A stretch of DNA of 64,000 nucleotides from Eledone cirrhosa (Eukaryota), in the NCBI GenBank assembly GCA_964016885.1, contig OZ024747.1, positions 76,880,001 to 76,944,000 on the forward strand, read 5' to 3'. Of this stretch, positions 41,900-61,362 are shown in pieces (the stretch's first letter is position 1; the number at the start of each line of letters is the position of its first letter). Under the pieces are notes generated by a model that did no database searches, was not told where the DNA came from, and saw nothing but the letters and a program-made list of their open reading frames with translations. The translations under genes were made by a program, and so were the position numbers.

Positions 41900-44703
41900 C
41901 ACACAAGCCAGGTAGATTATATCCTTACCAGGAGACGTGACAGAGTGTCTGTTGTAAACACTAAATCCCTCCCCCATGAAGAATGCACCTCTCAACATAG
42001 ACTCATGATTAGCGACCTCATAGTCAGGACGAGACGTATTCGACAACAGAAGAGGACTATCCTCAGGAGAAAAATATGGAAATTAAAGGACCCCACAGCC
42101 AGTAATAAATTTAAAAGCATATTACTTGATGCTTTTGATAGTAAGGAAGAGCAATTAGAGTCGCACAATATAGAGGAACAGTGGGAATTCCTGAAAGCTA
42201 ACCTGCTGAAGGCGACAGATGAAACCTGTGGCTGGAGCAGGCCTATAGGCAGGAGGAGAGTAACTTGGTGGTGGAACAGTAAGGTGGAGAGGTCAATCAA
42301 GGCAAAAAGCAGGCTTGGAAAGCATGGCGGGATGGGGGAAGTAGAGAAGACTATCAAGTGGACAGGAGGGAAGATAGGAGCCAAGTGTACTTCGCAAGAA
42401 GGGAAACAGAGGAAAGAAAGTTGAAGCATGTTCTACAACGTGAGGACCAAAAACGTGAGGTGTTCAGGATTGCTAGACAATGTGTCAAGGAAAACAGTGA
42501 TATTGTCGGGGAGAAGTGTGTCCTCAATGATGATGGTGTACTTGCCATCATTGATGCTGATAAGAAGGTAGCTTGGAAGTGTCACTATGAAAGACTACTA
42601 AATGAGGAGAATAATTGGGAGAAAGACAGTCTCCCCCACATCGACTCAATAGAGGGACCAGCAGTGCAAGTTGAAGGTATTATAATAAGTAAGGCGATCA
42701 AAGACACGAAGACGAGCAAGGCGGCCGGGCCTTCGGAAATAGTTGCAGAAATGCTGAAAGCATCTGGAACGGTGGGACACACTATGGTCACCTGGATAGT
42801 AAACCAAGTCATACAGAATGGGGTCGTTCCGAAGGACTGGCGCAGCAGCATCATCATTAACTGCTACAAGGGTAAAGGTAATGCCCTAGATAGGGGAAAC
42901 TATAGAGGCATTAAATTAATTGACCAGGTCATGAAGGTCACAGAAAAAGTAATAGCGCAACTAATCAGAGAGCGAATTGATCTAGACGAAATGCAGTTCG
43001 GGTTTGTGTCAGGTAAAAGTACAACAGATGCTCTTTTCATTGTACGACAACTACAGAAGTACCTAGCTAAAAGTAAACCCCTATACTTAGCTTTTGTTGA
43101 CTTGGAGAAAGCCTTTGACAGAGTACCCCGCTCGATTATCTGGTGGGCCCTTAGAAAACAAGGTGTTGATGAATGGCTTGTGAGAGCTATACAAGCCATG
43201 TATGAAGAAACAGTCAGCAAGGTTAGAATTAACAACGAATATAGTGAAGAGTTTAGCGTAAAAGTTGGTGTTCATCAGGGCTCCGTCCTTAGCCCCCTAC
43301 TATTTATTATTGCCCTTCAGGCTATAACAGAGGAGTTCAAGACTGGCTGCCCATGGGAACTCCTATATGCAGATGATCTAACGCTCATAGCTGAATCAAT
43401 GGCTGAACTAGAGAAGAAATTCCAAACATAGAAGCATGGCCTAGAATCAATAGGCCTTAAAGTTAACTTGTCTAAGACTAAAGTTCTAGTTTGTAGGAAG
43501 GAAAATAGGGCACCGGTCCCATCTGGGAAATGGCCATGCTCAGTGTGAAGGAAAGGAGTAGGTAGAAACTCCATTTTATGTCCCAAATGCAAAGTATGGG
43601 TATATAAAAGATGTAGTGGGATCACAGGTAAGCTAACTAAGAATATAGATTTTATATGTGGCCGGTGCTCTGGTGCAATAAGTAGCAGCAAGTGCCCAAG
43701 GAATACTAACTCATTCCATTGCACAGATGGTTCTATAGAAATAGTGGACAGCTTCCGTTACCTGGGTGACAAAATCAGCAGTGGGGGAGGGTGCTCTGAA
43801 AGTACAGTAGCTAGAGTCAGAACGGGATGGAAAAAGTTCAGAGAGCTTATACCACTATTGGCCGCTAAAGGGTTCTCTCTAAAAATGAAAGGCAGGCTGT
43901 ATGATGCCTGCATACGAACAGCAATGTTACATGGCAGTGAGACCTGGGCATTGTGTGCAGAGGATATATGCAGACTGGAGAGAAACGAAGCTTGCATGCT
44001 CCGCTGGATGTGTAATAGTAATATACGTGAACGGCAAAGCATAAACGAAGTAAGGGAGAAATTAGGAATAAGAGGGATCAGATGTTGTTTACTCGAGAGA
44101 AGACTACGTTGGTATGGTCACGTGATGCGCATGAAAGACGACAGCTGTATAAAAAAGTGCAGGGCAATAAAAATAGACGGTAGCCACGGAGTAAGCAGAC
44201 CCAGAAAAACCTGGGACGACTTGATAAATTCCGACCTCACACACTTACACCTCTCCAAGACAATGTCACTGGACCGAGATCTTTGACGCTACACAGTAAT
44301 AGAGAAGATCCGCCTTACCTAAATGCAAAGTGAAACCTACTACAGTCAGTAGGTACCTCTAACATAGTACACCCCCATCCCACTACCCCCACCCCATCCA
44401 CACCACCCCTTTCAATGTAAAGTTATGTTGGTACCACAACATCCAGCCCGAAACAAATGAGGTCGTGTAGGTGTCACGACAAAAAAACACACAGTCCACG
44501 CTGTAATGTGGCCGTGTAGGTAACACGGTAAAAACCTCCCAGTCCACACTGTAAATGTGGTTGGAGTTAGGAAGGGCATCTAGCCGTAGAAAACCCGCCA
44601 GACAGTCCTATGCGAGCAAGACAACCATTCTTGCCTCAAGTGGGAAAACTTCCGTCCAAACCCATGCAAGCGTGGAATATGGACGTTAAACGATGATGAT
44701 GAT
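41899..44703 (+). mobile_element. RTE-clade LINE, 5'-truncated and pseudogenised (APE C-terminus, RT, PHD-like insert, 3' UTR)
   Basis: SQVDYIL...QHRL (APE end), [56 protein letters not shown]. Frameshift near 42300-42360; stops at 43429, 43546 and 44284; (GAT)n tail. Confidence 0.95.
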
Positions 44704-50334: not shown

Positions 50335-50633
50335 TTATATATACATATATATATATATACATATACATACATATAAATACACATATATATATACATATAT
50401 ATACATATATATATTCATCATCATCTTCGTTTAACGTCCACTTTCCACGCTAGCATGGGTTAGACGGGAGTTGTCCCACTTGAGGCAAGGTTGGTCGGGT
50501 GACCGTGTCTCGCTCATATATATATACATATATATATATACATATACATACATATATATACACATATATATATACATATATATATATACATATACATATA
50601 TATACATATATATACATATACATATATATACAT

Positions 50634-51221: not shown

Positions 51222-51247
51222 ATACATATATATATATATACATATAC

Positions 51248-51280
<33 letters not shown>

Positions 51281-51300
51281 GATATACATATATATATATA

Positions 51301-54386: not shown

Positions 54387-55032
54387 CTTGGGGAGGGTCA
54401 TATTTGTGTAATATTGCCAGAATTAATAACAGAACACACTCACTGTTTGGTTGGTTTTCGCTTCTGTGTCTTTTATGTCGGTAATCTAATTTATTCGGTC
54501 CTCAATGTTGTCATTGACAGACCAGTGGTCAAAAATACAGATACAATATAGACACACATATATATAGTTTATCAAAGTTCTTTCGTTGCACGTCTGAAAC
54601 ATCGTCAGTGGTGCTATTGTTTCCTCCTGTTACATTGTATTTTCTACGCCATCTTTATTTAGTCTGTTTATATATTTATTTATTTGTTTATTTTATTTTG
54701 TCTTCTTTGCGCATGCGTTTGCGTGTGTGTATAGTGTTTTGTTTGATGTCTGTTCGTAATTGGGTGACTGTGTATTGGTTAATCTATTCTATCTTTACTG
54801 GTGTGTGTTTATATGTGTTTGTTGTTATTGTGCTTCTGTATGTATTTATTTATTTATTTATACTTCCCTTAGGTCAGTGTTGTTTGTTTGGGTGTTGTTG
54901 TTATTCCATTCATTCTTTCTGTTTAGCCTTGGCCTTCTAAGTTCTATTTCACTGGCCTCTCTGATTTGCCTATCTGTGAGTGTGTTCTGTTATTAATTCT
55001 GGCAATATTACACAAATATGACCCTCCCCAAG
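54387..55032. mobile_element. 646-bp element with 57-bp perfect terminal inverted repeats, TA-flanked (MITE-like)
   Basis: 54387-54443 (CTTGGGGAGGGTCATATTTGTG...ACACTCAC) is the reverse complement of 54976-55032. Confidence 0.8.
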
Positions 55033-55140
55033 TATATGTATATATATATATATACATATATATATACATTATGTATATATATACATATATATATATACAT
55101 TATGTATATATATACATATATATACATATATATATACATT

Positions 55141-55172
<32 letters not shown>

Positions 55173-55409
55173 CATTATGTATATATATACATATATATAT
55201 ATACATATACATTATGTATATATATACATATATATATATATACATATATATATACATTATGTATATATATACATATATATATATACATATACATTATGTA
55301 TATATATACATATATAAATATACATATATATATACATTTATATATATATATATATACATTATGTATATATATATATACATATATATATATACATATATAT
55401 ATACATTTA

Positions 55410-55443
<34 letters not shown>

Positions 55444-55562
55444 CATATATATATACATATATATATATATACATATATATATACATATATATATATACAT
55501 ATATATATACATATATATATATACATATATATATACATATATATATATACATATATATATAC

Positions 55563-55612
<50 letters not shown>

Positions 55613-55841
55613 GTATATATATATACATATGTATATATATATACATGTATATATATATATACATATATATATATATACATTATATATATATATATACATA
55701 TATAAATATATATACATATATATATATATACATTATATATATATATACATTATATATATATACATATATATATATATACATATATATATATACATTATAT
55801 ATATATATAGATTATATATATATATATACACAAATATATAT

Positions 55842-55914
<73 letters not shown>

Positions 55915-55994
55915 TATATACATATGGAGGCACATGGCTTAGTGGTTAGAGCGTCGGCTTGCAATCAAAATATATATATAGTTATACATATATA

Positions 55995-56056
<62 letters not shown>

Positions 56057-56093
56057 TATATACATATATATATATACATATATATATATATAC

Positions 56094-56126
<33 letters not shown>

Positions 56127-56418
56127 CATAGACCACAGCCCATATATAAATACATACATATATACATAGAATATATATTTACATATATATATATATAAAT
56201 ATAAAAATAATGATAATAATATTGATGAGGTGTTAAGTTTTCATTACATTTATTGAGCTGTGACACGCACTTCATGATTGATCGGTTCAAGCTCCGATCT
56301 GTATTGATCGGGCCTGACTCTGGAATCAAAAGCTTGTCGAACCTCTTGTCATAAAGACAGAATGATTCACTTACAGAAAATATATAAATATAATTATATA
56401 TATATACATATGTGTGTA

Positions 56419-56462
<44 letters not shown>

Positions 56463-56506
56463 TGTGTATATATATATATATACATATATGTATATACATG
56501 TGTGTA

Positions 56507-56566
<60 letters not shown>

Positions 56567-56670
56567 CATGTGTGTATATATGTGTATATATATATATATA
56601 TACATATGTGTGTATATATATATATACATATGTGTGTATATATGTGTATATATATATATATATATACACA

Positions 56671-56702
<32 letters not shown>

Positions 56703-56847
56703 CATATGTGTGTATATATGTGTGTATATATATATATATATACGTGTGTATATATGTGTATATATATATATATATATACATGTGTATAAACATGTATATA
56801 TATGTGTATAAACATGTATATATGTGTATATATATATATATATGTAC

Positions 56848-56898
<51 letters not shown>

Positions 56899-56961
56899 CA
56901 TAAACATGTATATATATACATGTGTATAAACATGTATATATATATATGTGTACAAACATGT

Positions 56962-57091
<130 letters not shown>

Positions 57092-57131
57092 TTCAAAATA
57101 TTACCAAAATAGATATTCTTGTGATCAAGTA

Positions 57132-57198
57132 TATTTTATTATACATATTTCAGAGGTACTGAGTTAAGTTCAACAGTACGTCCTCATCAGATAGAATA
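57132..57198 (-). ncRNA. Minimal type I hammerhead ribozyme (Penelope-associated type)
   Basis: TATTCTAT-CTGATGA-GGAcGTACTG(loop)CAGTACcTCT-GAAA-T ATGT A-TA-ATAAAATA: intact core, stem I 7/8 paired, stem II, minimal stem III. Confidence 0.75.
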
Positions 57199-57317
57199 AG
57201 ATGATGCATGACATACCCTGACATAGTAGATGGTTAAAATTCAGACATGTTGAGTGCTTACAATCTATTGTAAAACTCATTCTTTGATTTATTAATTGAA
57301 CCTCGTTTAACTTTTAA

Positions 57318-57345
<28 letters not shown>

Positions 57346-57348
<3 letters not shown>

Positions 57349-57634
57349 AAGGATAAAAAGGACGATTGATTATACCTTCATTGCATTTATTGATAGGTGA
57401 CGCGCGTTTCGCCACTGATCATGGAGTCGGGTAAGATCGATATAGATCGAACCTTGAGCTGATCAGTGGCGAAACGCATGTCACCTATCAATAAATGCAA
57501 TGAAGGAATAATCAATCGTCCTTTTTATCCTTTCTATATATTACACTCTGTATAGCTCTACACATCATCACAGAAGTGAACCTAAACATCGAGTGCTCAC
57601 CCGGGTGAACCTGCAGTAACTCCTAGTTACACCC

Positions 57635-57638
<4 letters not shown>
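57346..57638. mobile_element. Penelope-like relic with inverted arms of about 75 bp carrying GAAAC-GCGC-GTC
   Basis: Arms at 57346-57421 and 57460-57535. The hammerhead 3' half is followed by AATAAA. Confidence 0.7.
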
Positions 57639-57677
<39 letters not shown>

Positions 57678-57894
57678 TTTGTTTAGAAACAGGGAGCAAA
57701 GTTTGAAATTTAGTAGAAATTGAAGCTTTTGTCATATTTTTCACTAAAGAAATTTTAGCCTGATAATGGAGTTTAAACCCTCTAAATATGGAAAAGGATG
57801 AGTATTTATGCACTATATATATATATATTAGGATTGGTGCTAAATACGGTATATTGCCAAATATACTATACATACATTCATATATATCTATATA

Positions 57895-58104
57895 CCACAC
57901 TGTAATGTGGCCGTGTAGGTAACACGGTAAAAACCTACCAGTCCACACTGTAAACGTGGTTGGTGTTAGGAAGGGCATCCAGCCGTAGAAAACCCGCCAG
58001 ACAGTCCTATACGAGCAAGACAACCAATCTTGCCTCAAGTGGGAAAACTCCCGTCCAAACCCATGCAAGCGTGGAAGATGGACGTTAAACGATGATGATG
58101 ATGA
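57895..58104 (+). mobile_element. RTE 3' UTR fragment
   Basis: Matches 44495-44703. Confidence 0.85.
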
Positions 58105-58406
58105 TATCTATCTATATATATAGTTGCTTGGTGTGTAACATTCAGATAACATGGCTTCACCAGTTTAAGCACTCAATGCTATTACATGGAGAGACTACTG
58201 AAGTAGGAGTTGTCCTTGTGTGGTCACCAGCCTCAGTATCAGTAACAAGCAGATTTTAATAATAAGTGAGATCAAAGTATCAATATATTATCTTGCACAT
58301 ATTTATATTCAACTGTGATAAATGTTTCGCCATCAGCTCAAGATATGCTGGATCACAATTGGGTCTGACTCTGGGATAGATAGTTTATCAGTTCCAGAAG
58401 CAAGGA

Positions 58407-58657
58407 TGATCATGATTGACTGTGACTCATCGTAATTGACTGTGACTGATCATGATTGAATGTGACTCTTCGTATTTGACTGTGACTCATCGTAATTGAC
58501 TGTGACTGATCATGATTGAATGTGACTCTTCGTATTTGACTGTGACTCATCGTAATTGACTGTGACTGATCATGATTGAATGTGACTCTTCGTATTTGAC
58601 TGTGACTCATCGTAATTGACTGTGACTGATCATGATTGACTGTGACTGGTCGTGATT
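58407..58657. repeat. 60-bp higher-order repeat made of three 20-bp subunits
   Basis: Lines 58441, 58501 and 58561 are identical 60-mers; the subunits share TGA(C/A)TGTGACT. Confidence 0.92.
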
Positions 58658-58843
58658 AATCGACCGCGAAACATGCATCACAGGTGAATAAAGTATATAC
58701 AGGATACTTCCTATATTTGAGTATATATATATGTATACACATATATATATATGTATGATATAAATTTATATATATGTGATATATATATATAAAATATGTA
58801 TATGATATATATATACATGATATATATATGATATATAAATATA

Positions 58844-58900
<57 letters not shown>

Positions 58901-58987
58901 ATATATAATATAGGTATATATATGATATATGTATATATATCATATATGTATATATATATTATATATATAATATAGGTATATATATGA

Positions 58988-59034
<47 letters not shown>

Positions 59035-59073
59035 GATATTAATAAATGGAAACTATATTTATAAAACCATATT

Positions 59074-59138
59074 TATTTCATTATACATATTTCAGGGATA
59101 CCACATTAAATTATGGTATGCCTTCATCAGACAAAATA
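59074..59138 (-). ncRNA. Minimal type I hammerhead ribozyme, second copy
   Basis: TATTTTGT-CTGATGA-AGGcATACCA(loop)TGGTATcCCT-GAAA-T ATGT A-TA-ATGAAATA: intact core, stem I fully paired with two G-U. Confidence 0.78.
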
Positions 59139-59255
59139 CAATATATAACAGTTTCCATTTATTAATATCGTATATCTACTCCAAAAATTTGTCGAGTGCT
59201 TTATATCAGTTATAAAAATATTTACTTGTTGTATCCCAACAACTTTAAATAGAAC

Positions 59256-59295
<40 letters not shown>

Positions 59296-59342
59296 ATAAT
59301 ATATACATATATATGATATAATATATATATATATATGATATA

Positions 59343-59377
<35 letters not shown>

Positions 59378-59720
59378 TACACATGTATATGATTTATATA
59401 CACAAAATCTGGTTGTGCAAGTGCTTGGCAATCAATTCTGATAAGCTGAATGGAGTTACAACTATATTGTAACAGGTGTGCCGCCAGTCACTCTGGGGCA
59501 ATCAGTTACATGTCTTGGTGTGCTCTTAAAAACCACTCTGAATAGAGCACTTAAACTTGGAATTCTTGGCCGCATACCAGGTCACATATCATCATCATCA
59601 TCCTCGTTTAACGTCCACCTTCCACGCTAGCATGGGTTATTCTAATTCTCTCTATATATCTCTCTCTCATATATAATATATATATATATATATAATATAT
59701 ATATTGTAATTCTCTCTATA

Positions 59721-59756
<36 letters not shown>

Positions 59757-59761
<5 letters not shown>

Positions 59762-59960
59762 AAACGAGTAGGACCCCGACGGCTGAGCTCAAGCCGTTTC
59801 GACGGCTAATTCAGGACTACTGCCAGAATTAGCCGTCGAAACGGCTTGAGCTCAGCCGTCGGGGTCTTACTTGTTCCTATTACCCACTCTATTACCCTAA
59901 GTATTGAGTACTTTGGTGCATTATGGTCCATCTGGTTCCTTACCACATTTCCTTCGTTAT
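59757..59960. mobile_element. Penelope-like relic with palindrome (half-hammerhead family)
   Basis: Inverted arms of about 55 bp at 59757-59880 containing GAAACGGCT-TGAGCTC-AGCCGTC. Confidence 0.65.
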
Positions 59961-60637
59961 ATATATATACACATTTATATTAAAATAACAGATTAAAGTT
60001 TAAGCAAAGAATCGCTGCTTTCACCCTTAACGGGATTTTCTGAACATTTAGGCATACCCTAGATATATGTGTGTGTGTATATATATGTGTGTGTGTGTGT
60101 GTACAATATATAGTGTTTTCTCATGGCTATGTCGTCCTTTTTCTCTCTCAATCTCTCTCTAGAGAAAAAAATATATACATATTCTTATTTTGAGATACAA
60201 TAGTTCACACACACACACACACACATTCTCATCATAAATACGTAGACTGAGGATCGATCTTACTCTGTGCCGTCTTTGGTAAATCCTGTCTACTACATAC
60301 TGCAGTCACCATACCTCGTGAGTGGAATTTGCTAGATAGACTAAATCTATGTGGAAGCTATAATATGTGGCTGTGTTTGTTATGAATACCGATATAAACC
60401 GGTGGGTCGGAATGCGTCTGATTCGATCGATAGTTTAGCAATTCGGCAAATAATGGTTACTAAAATAACATCAGAGTAAATTATACAGAGATGTCGGTAT
60501 GCTGTATTAAAATCCTTGAAATCTATGCTCCAGTATGGCCGCCGCAGTTCGATTATTTCAGCTATTAAGTTAATGCATACTTTTTAAATATGCATCTACA
60601 AATTAGACGTTCAGTACTGATAAATGTGTAGCATAAA

Positions 60638-60760
<123 letters not shown>

Positions 60761-61362
60761 CGTACACTTTCATTAATACACCCAGTATATTGATGAAACA
60801 TGAGCATCACACATATATTTTATTGTTACATTAATTCATAAATCTTCACACGTACAAATATTTAACACACACACACACATGTTTATATATATATATATAA
60901 ACACACACGTACATACAAACGCTTATAAAATTAGATCTTATACATACATTCCTAGCTAAGCTATTTTCCTTGCAAGACATTACGTATGCCTTAAACATAG
61001 ACATATTTTACTATATAGGAGCAATAACTATAATACAAGGTGGTATAATACATGCTACACACCCATGAATTCTATATAAACACACAGTACTAAACACACA
61101 GTACTATACACACAACAGTACTTACCACACAGTACTATACACACAACAGTACTTACCACACAGTACTATACACATAACAGTATTAAACAGACTCTCTTTA
61201 GTATTGTACATACAACATAGTATTAAATAGCTACATACCTTAACATAACACATTTCAATATCATCTTACACACACTATTGCACATTAACAATATATACAT
61301 ACATTTGATATAATTAGAATTCGTTGGGGTTTTCAAAACCCACGAATATATTTGATATGGTT

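Follow-up and report, generated by a model that had tools for sequence, protein, structure and literature searches.

Two hammerhead motifs at one locus of the Eledone cirrhosa genome as probable remnants of separate Penelope-like insertions

Two insertions and a patchwork spacer

The window (the whole 64,000-nt stretch of DNA analysed here) carries two hammerhead motifs, A and B, on its minus strand. Homology to other copies ends at (TA)n on both sides of each motif, at ~57083-57334 for A and ~59026-59260 for B; each motif lies within a separate insertion of ~240 bp, truncated at the 5' end, set in (TA)n and accompanied by an inverted 3' tail. The features are as follows.

56380..57088, no strand: (TA)n-rich target microsatellite beside insertion A (repeat analysis)
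57083..57260, minus: 5'-truncated family A pLTR piece with hammerhead, its "short" 3' end against (TA)n; 95% to the 3' pLTR of the long copy L154
57132..57198, minus: family A hammerhead motif, type I, 1-bp helix III and AUGU loop (pattern and descriptor match); CUGAUGA from 57190, GAAA from 57151, predicted cut after 57140
57248..57334, plus: inverted 3' tail of a family A pLTR, its "long" 3' end against (TA)n; 92-93% to the 3' ends of L154 and L151
57335..58721, no strand: spacer, a patchwork of unrelated repeats belonging to neither element (locus comparison), with repeats at 57350-57540, 57550-57810 and 57895-58122 and a 60-bp tandem array at 58416-58647
58722..59033, no strand: (TA)n-rich target microsatellite beside insertion B (repeat analysis)
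59026..59154, minus: 5'-truncated, hammerhead-bearing pLTR piece of family B that abuts (TA)n with its short 3' end; 98% to the pLTR in the long copy L161
59074..59138, minus: family B hammerhead motif (pattern and descriptor match); CUGAUGA from 59130, GAAA from 59093, predicted cut after 59082
59150..59259, plus: inverted 3' tail of a family B pLTR that abuts (TA)n with its long 3' end; 97% to L161
59261..59367, no strand: (TA)n-rich microsatellite on the other flank of insertion B (repeat analysis)

The overlap of the two B pieces is predicted by folding to close a long hairpin round the hammerhead in minus-strand RNA. The remainder of the spacer is sequence without a match among the compared loci. 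Head-to-tail repeats of one hammerhead-bearing unit, the mark of a non-LTR retrozyme, are absent from 56000-60500. Pfam finds one separate reverse transcriptase (RT) and two weak, below-cut-off matches among the 65 non-repetitive open reading frames (ORFs) of the window.

The neighbourhood holds further debris of related kinds. The repeat at 57350-57540 consists of two 3' halves, inverted relative to each other, from another hammerhead family (GAAA, GUC and a palindromic GCGC/GCAU loop), both without a core; in the fuller copies at L018, L047 and L106 the core is CUGACGA and helix II is very long. A third common repeat, present in 26-37 of 162 loci, is represented at 59757-59980 by truncated copies in inverted arrangement; it combines GAAA and GUC with a long, palindromic hairpin that resembles helix III, and no upstream CUGANGA core is seen among the 20 matches listed (some redundant). 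Degenerate hammerhead-like 3' halves of probable Penelope-like origin lie at 58290-58400, 58650-58700 and 56240-56350, the one at 58668 adjoining the 60-bp tandem array, and short family B pLTR end fragments without a complete hammerhead lie at 50367-50489 and ~51230-51290. A 382-aa open frame at 42283-43428 on the plus strand has a strong RVT_1 match (E 4.5e-26) and probably derives from a LINE. A related 3' repeat, with (GAT)n as its terminus, is found again at 57895-58122 and at other places.

Pairing in the motifs and the chance of their occurrence

Read on the minus strand from 57198 to 57132 and from 59138 to 59074, both motifs follow the pattern stem I - CUGAUGA - helix II - GAAA-U-AUGU-A-UA - stem I'. 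Every part of a type I hammerhead is present: the core CUGANGA, GAAA and UH set round three helices, with helix I open. Residues 10.1, 11.1, A9 and H17 are named by the conventional numbering scheme. The first 10 positions of helix II are paired at 9 in A and B alike, position 4 being C-C in both; the 10.1-11.1 pair is G-U in A and A-U in B, instead of the usual G-C. Helix III in the monomer consists of 1 bp past A15.1-U16.1. An alternative register of helix II with an extra base after A9 pairs 3 of 8 first positions, against 7 of 8 without the extra base, and was discarded.

The first-pass annotation of this DNA had described two minimal type I hammerheads on the minus strand, with helices II that differ in sequence yet pair and share the mismatch at position 4, and both descriptions hold. 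It had also described stems I as different but paired, which is true throughout for B (8/8) and true for A at 7 of 8 positions, the eighth being C-A.

A descriptor specifying the helices as well as the core finds 2 motifs in the window and none in any of 200 dinucleotide shuffles made block by block; relaxed, it matches twice over 200 shuffles, never both in one shuffle. The loose core pattern alone also finds just these 2 in the window, and 2 or more turn up in 25 of 100 shuffles, which is not significant. The concern that such motifs arise freely in shuffled sequence is thus dispelled for the full structure and borne out for the bare core. A chance origin of the motifs is rejected by the descriptor-versus-shuffle comparison together with the genome-wide tag counts and their controls, given below.

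A model search for hammerheads, also proposed at first pass, did not register either motif: an Rfam scan of the whole window gave no match reaching gathering scores, and no hammerhead stands among the best 150 of 234 weak matches in 55000-61000. Single-motif minimum-energy folds are no better than those of shuffles (z -0.6 to -1.7) and are uninformative about the hammerhead fold.

Covariation and a probable dimeric ribozyme

With core and helix I fixed and helix II pairing left free, a descriptor yields 185 matches in 17 clusters, some of the copies damaged. Helix II positions 1-3 and 5-9 are paired in 13-17 of the 17 cluster representatives, with varying pair types; position 4 is paired in one and is C-C, C-U or U-C in the other 16. 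Among 10 hand-picked subfamily copies both sides change at 14 of 22 pairs, a count that none of 500 shuffles reaches and that slid controls fall far below; relatedness among sequences can inflate such counts. The covariation across copies that the annotation anticipated is therefore found. RNAalifold, unaided, recovers helices I and II and not helix III.

The free bases of loop III are AUGU in 157 of the 185 matches, AUAU in 15, GCGC in 8, GAUC in 2, and ACGU, GUGU and AAGU in one each. If G-U is allowed, all are self-complementary except the single AAGU (184/185). The middle pair of this loop is possible only between two molecules or motifs, which suggests a double hammerhead. Taken together, the sequences support a selected, dimer-type ribozyme, whose likely role would be to cut unit RNA from pLTR-ORF-pLTR transcripts. 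AUA, after which the cut is predicted, is a natural hammerhead triplet (PMC1636495).

By nearest-neighbour folding, which ignores tertiary contacts, the active fold is not the preferred one for either monomer or dimer. The energy of the active monomer is -1.3 kcal/mol for A and -4.4 kcal/mol for B, where the respective minima are -9.3 and -12.8. Double hammerheads (A:A -14.2, B:B -20.4, A:B -17.9 kcal/mol) are ~12 kcal/mol better than two active monomers and 8-10 kcal/mol above the cofold minima, A:B by 8.

These energies, with the weakness of helix III and a closing pair other than G-C, would fit motifs that are catalytically dead structure signals, their fold being kept for reverse-transcriptase binding or priming, a reading that is compatible with a Penelope-like origin. 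Related minimal hammerheads are, moreover, inactive as monomers and weakly active as dimers in vitro (PMC4209133), and the function of hammerheads in Penelope-like elements (PLEs) has been called unclear (PMC4209133, PMC8557442). That the catalytic core and the UH triplet are kept across families speaks against the loss of catalysis, as does the fact that free loop III changes only between self-complementary forms, which is what a double hammerhead needs. A purely structural signal is accordingly unlikely.

At least four further hammerhead families have other helices and the same core, a U-NNNN-A helix III and the position-4 pyrimidine mismatch (L046:1928-1998, L035:1378-1439, L025:376-440, L157:713-794, L080:3143-3222). 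In the literature searched, neither families A and B nor the helix II mismatch are described; the supplementary figures of PMC4209133 may show similar motifs.

Parent elements and their protein

Long copies were sampled as 14 stretches on one contig, chosen for two tags 2.6-5.5 kb apart. Pieces of an RT/endonuclease ORF occur in 11 of them (A 4/5, B 7/9); of the three without a long ORF piece, L152 retains only a C-terminal motif and L162 and L163 have none. The family B copy L161 has the order inverted copy - pLTR - ORF - pLTR, with hammerheads 4,034 nt apart and a predicted cut ~190 nt upstream of the ATG; the family A copy L154 is a direct pLTR-ORF-pLTR arrangement with hammerheads 4,543 nt apart. 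In long elements, then, the first hammerhead precedes the ORF start by ~190-215 nt and the second lies 4.0-4.5 kb downstream. Both L161 and L154 have the composition of a Penelope-like element, pLTRs around one ORF of RT and GIY-YIG type; the window copies are pLTR pieces only. The earlier assignment of A and B to the minimal type I hammerheads of PLEs, as a dimer-type, AUA-cleaving family, gains support from this location of the motif in the pLTRs of long copies.

None of the long copies examined has an unbroken ORF. Identity between the proteins of A and B is 48-71% in the matched pieces, so that A and B are related but distinct families. Pfam gives a weak, below-cut-off RVT_1 match in 1 of 7 ORF pieces and no GIY-YIG match in the 7; the top ESM Atlas matches (0.95-0.96) fall in clusters that include HTH_animal, GIY-YIG and RVT_1 members. 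The motifs found are RWR, DKT, YRDD, CxCx5C, Y[IV]G, CxxC and CxH, with no CCHH: DKT (in place of DKG) in L154, L160 and L161; RWR at the RWK position in L160 and L161, the pattern giving no match in family A copies; the CxCx5C linker in L153-L156, L158, L159 and L164; CxxC in 11 of 14 loci. The presence of CxH and the absence of CCHH were read off a protein alignment of the long copies. By its motifs and by an alignment, made by eye, with published Hydra proteins, the ORF fits the Hydra clade of PLEs.

A genome-wide search for the GIY-YIG family gave 10,596 candidates, of which 150 were scored and 30 loci (L061-L090) examined. As parents of A or B these were rejected: they are endonucleases of other PLE types with no link to either family. 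Most of the 30 loci carry a Cx4CxxC linker, indicating that other PLE clades are abundant too.

Abundance and insertion pattern

Exact tags occur 4,560 times (family A) and 6,013 times (family B) in the 3.0-Gb genome, their controls 0 and 0 times; for the 3' half of the motif, which is common to both, the count is 64,832, against 4 for its control. The full descriptor matches at 54 of 60 tag loci, so that not every tag counted is a complete copy. DNA searches with each motif likewise return dispersed copies (at least 43 and at least 63 matches). Hydra-type elements can, on this copy number, form a major repeat class in the Eledone cirrhosa genome.

At all 60 unselected loci (TA)5+ lies at most 165 nt downstream, nearly always at one of two distances. 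After six duplicates were left out, 30 of 54 unselected loci showed one orientation only; of the 24 showing both, 22 have one short and one long 3' end, the long end extending 83-102 bp beyond the short one. The 5' ends range from within the hammerhead to >1.4 kb into the element, a variability expected from truncation of long elements. That short copies number in the thousands and have fixed 3' ends, and that retrozymes have been proposed to derive from PLE pLTRs (bioRxiv 10.64898/2026.07.22.740005), might suggest that the copies are non-autonomous hammerhead elements, of solo-pLTR or retrozyme-like kind, moving on their own with aid from the full element. Against this stand the variable 5' ends and the finding of a same-family head-to-tail pair at only 1 of 54 unselected loci (L100), with no tandem arrays seen. 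The idea is extremely improbable.

Of 54 unselected loci, 7 have a second complete hammerhead on the same strand within 1.5 kb; order and spacing vary among the 7, and 6 of them combine different families or subfamilies. For 64,832 motifs, random placement alone predicts 1.4 per 64-kb window, with a probability of 0.40 for two or more, and ~1,390 same-strand pairs within 2 kb genome-wide. Clustering would be explained by shared (TA)n targeting. With ~65,000 similar motifs in the genome, the closeness of A and B is likely incidental.

A more far-reaching proposal takes the motifs as a distinct variant in which the fixed pyrimidine mismatch at position 4 of the long helix II docks helix I instead of a loop-loop contact, and in which a common self-complementary helix III, together with helices I that are compatible, lets active heterodimers arise across families and provide a genome-wide layer of RNA processing. 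Were it so, read-through RNA would be cut at >1,000 same-strand neighbour pairs, A-B among them, and the ~65,000 transposon remnants would constitute that layer. The proposal is very unlikely to be right as a whole; the fixed mismatch is nonetheless a specific and testable structural lead, if a modest one.

The origin of A and B

The most probable account of the locus, to which we would give odds of about nine in ten, is that A and B are pLTR hammerheads of two independent 5'-truncated insertions, from two related PLE families with Hydra-clade motifs, likely inert and brought side by side by shared (TA)n targeting. That the pieces in the window map at 92-98% on the pLTRs of long copies is the reason for reading them as PLE leftovers. 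They carry no ORF and no direct partner of the same family, and are thus most likely inert passengers.

How such leftovers would come about can be sketched from the location in pLTRs, the direct pLTR pairs round an ORF, the covariation, the self-complementary helix III, the truncation pattern and the (TA)n targets. Two hammerheads in a pLTR-ORF-pLTR or tandem transcript would swap helices I and III by way of the self-complementary helix III. The resulting double hammerhead would cut after AUA and free the unit element RNA for reverse transcription (from the structure and the model of PMC4209133). The endonuclease and RT of the element would then insert the unit RNA into (TA)n, most often with truncation and partial inversion. 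Integration leaves a truncated copy with an inverted piece, one end short and the other with a tail of 83-102 bp, and the window copies are leftovers of this kind.

The first-pass annotation had proposed that A and B could be transcribed together and free the intervening RNA, and as a feature of this locus this part of it is not supported: the motifs belong to different families and to separate (TA)n-flanked insertions, and none of 162 other loci shares a junction of the patchwork spacer, no alignment in them crossing a hammerhead-spacer boundary. Stated more loosely, as a heterodimeric double hammerhead of minus-strand RNA that releases 1.9 kb, whether incidentally or by selection, the notion is sequence-compatible and possible in principle, provided that one minus-strand RNA covers both motifs. 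A and B share a strand and an identical self-complementary helix III, their helices I cross-pair at 7 and 8 of 8 positions, A:B falls between A:A and B:B in energy, and dimers of minimal PLE hammerheads have some, if low, activity in vitro (PMC4209133). Yet the insertions are independent and same-strand neighbours such as these are common; hammerhead A does not form in the predicted 2.2-kb fold of 57083-59280, and A:B lies well above its cofold minimum. Nor does Pfam recognise a host gene among the 65 window ORFs, a search that short exons would escape. An A-B pair that releases this RNA is highly improbable, and independent insertion is the reading retained here.

The A-B locus is in itself of little weight. 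What its families offer is natural test material for the function of PLE hammerheads: their copies are numerous, young and nearly identical, long elements of pLTR-ORF-pLTR order exist, and there are variants of loop III in which the middle pair needs two ribozymes to form.

Comparison with known systems

The Hydra-clade PLEs (PMC8557442), which include Hydra-1_Obim of Octopus bimaculoides, likewise have a single ORF with RT and C-terminal endonuclease. They share with the A and B elements the DKT, the CxCx5C linker, CxxC, CxH and the absence of CCHH, as well as (TA)n targets, a hammerhead near the 3' end, an inverted truncated copy and a tail at one end (PMC8557442), and the published proteins align by eye with L161 motif for motif. 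The A and B elements differ in having RWR, read in L160 and L161, rather than RWK, a unit of 4.0-4.5 kb rather than <3 kb and a tail of 83-102 bp rather than 30-40 bp (PMC8557442). Their hammerheads are also unlike every Hydra row listed in File S2 of that paper, in that helix II, of 9-10 bp, has a C-C inside it, A9 is not followed by an extra base and helix III reads U-AUGU-A. Since the hammerhead of Hydra-1_Obim differs, A and B are families other than Hydra-1_Obim.

The minimal PLE hammerheads of PMC4209133 are likewise of type I, reside in pLTRs and occur as thousands of dispersed solo copies, with a long helix II, a small palindromic helix III, covarying families and a proposed dimer; close opposite-strand pairs are on record, as is a helix II bulge in the Penelope hammerhead of D. 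virilis. In the consensus given there, a further nucleotide separates 9 from 10.1, and the closing pair is G10.1-C11.1. A and B show neither trait, and they differ from it further by a helix I of 8 bp and the fixed pyrimidine mismatch in helix II.

The hammerheads of non-LTR retrozymes and amphibian satellite-2 (PMC7229834) share the 1-bp helix III and the palindromic tetraloop, are more active as dimers and number tens of thousands of copies. They form head-to-tail repeats of 150-450 bp, with circular RNAs and loop 1-loop 2 contacts (PMC7229834), whereas A and B occur as scattered copies, each a truncated end of a coding element. To judge from sequence, A and B would be new families of a known kind, PLE hammerhead elements with Hydra-clade protein motifs.
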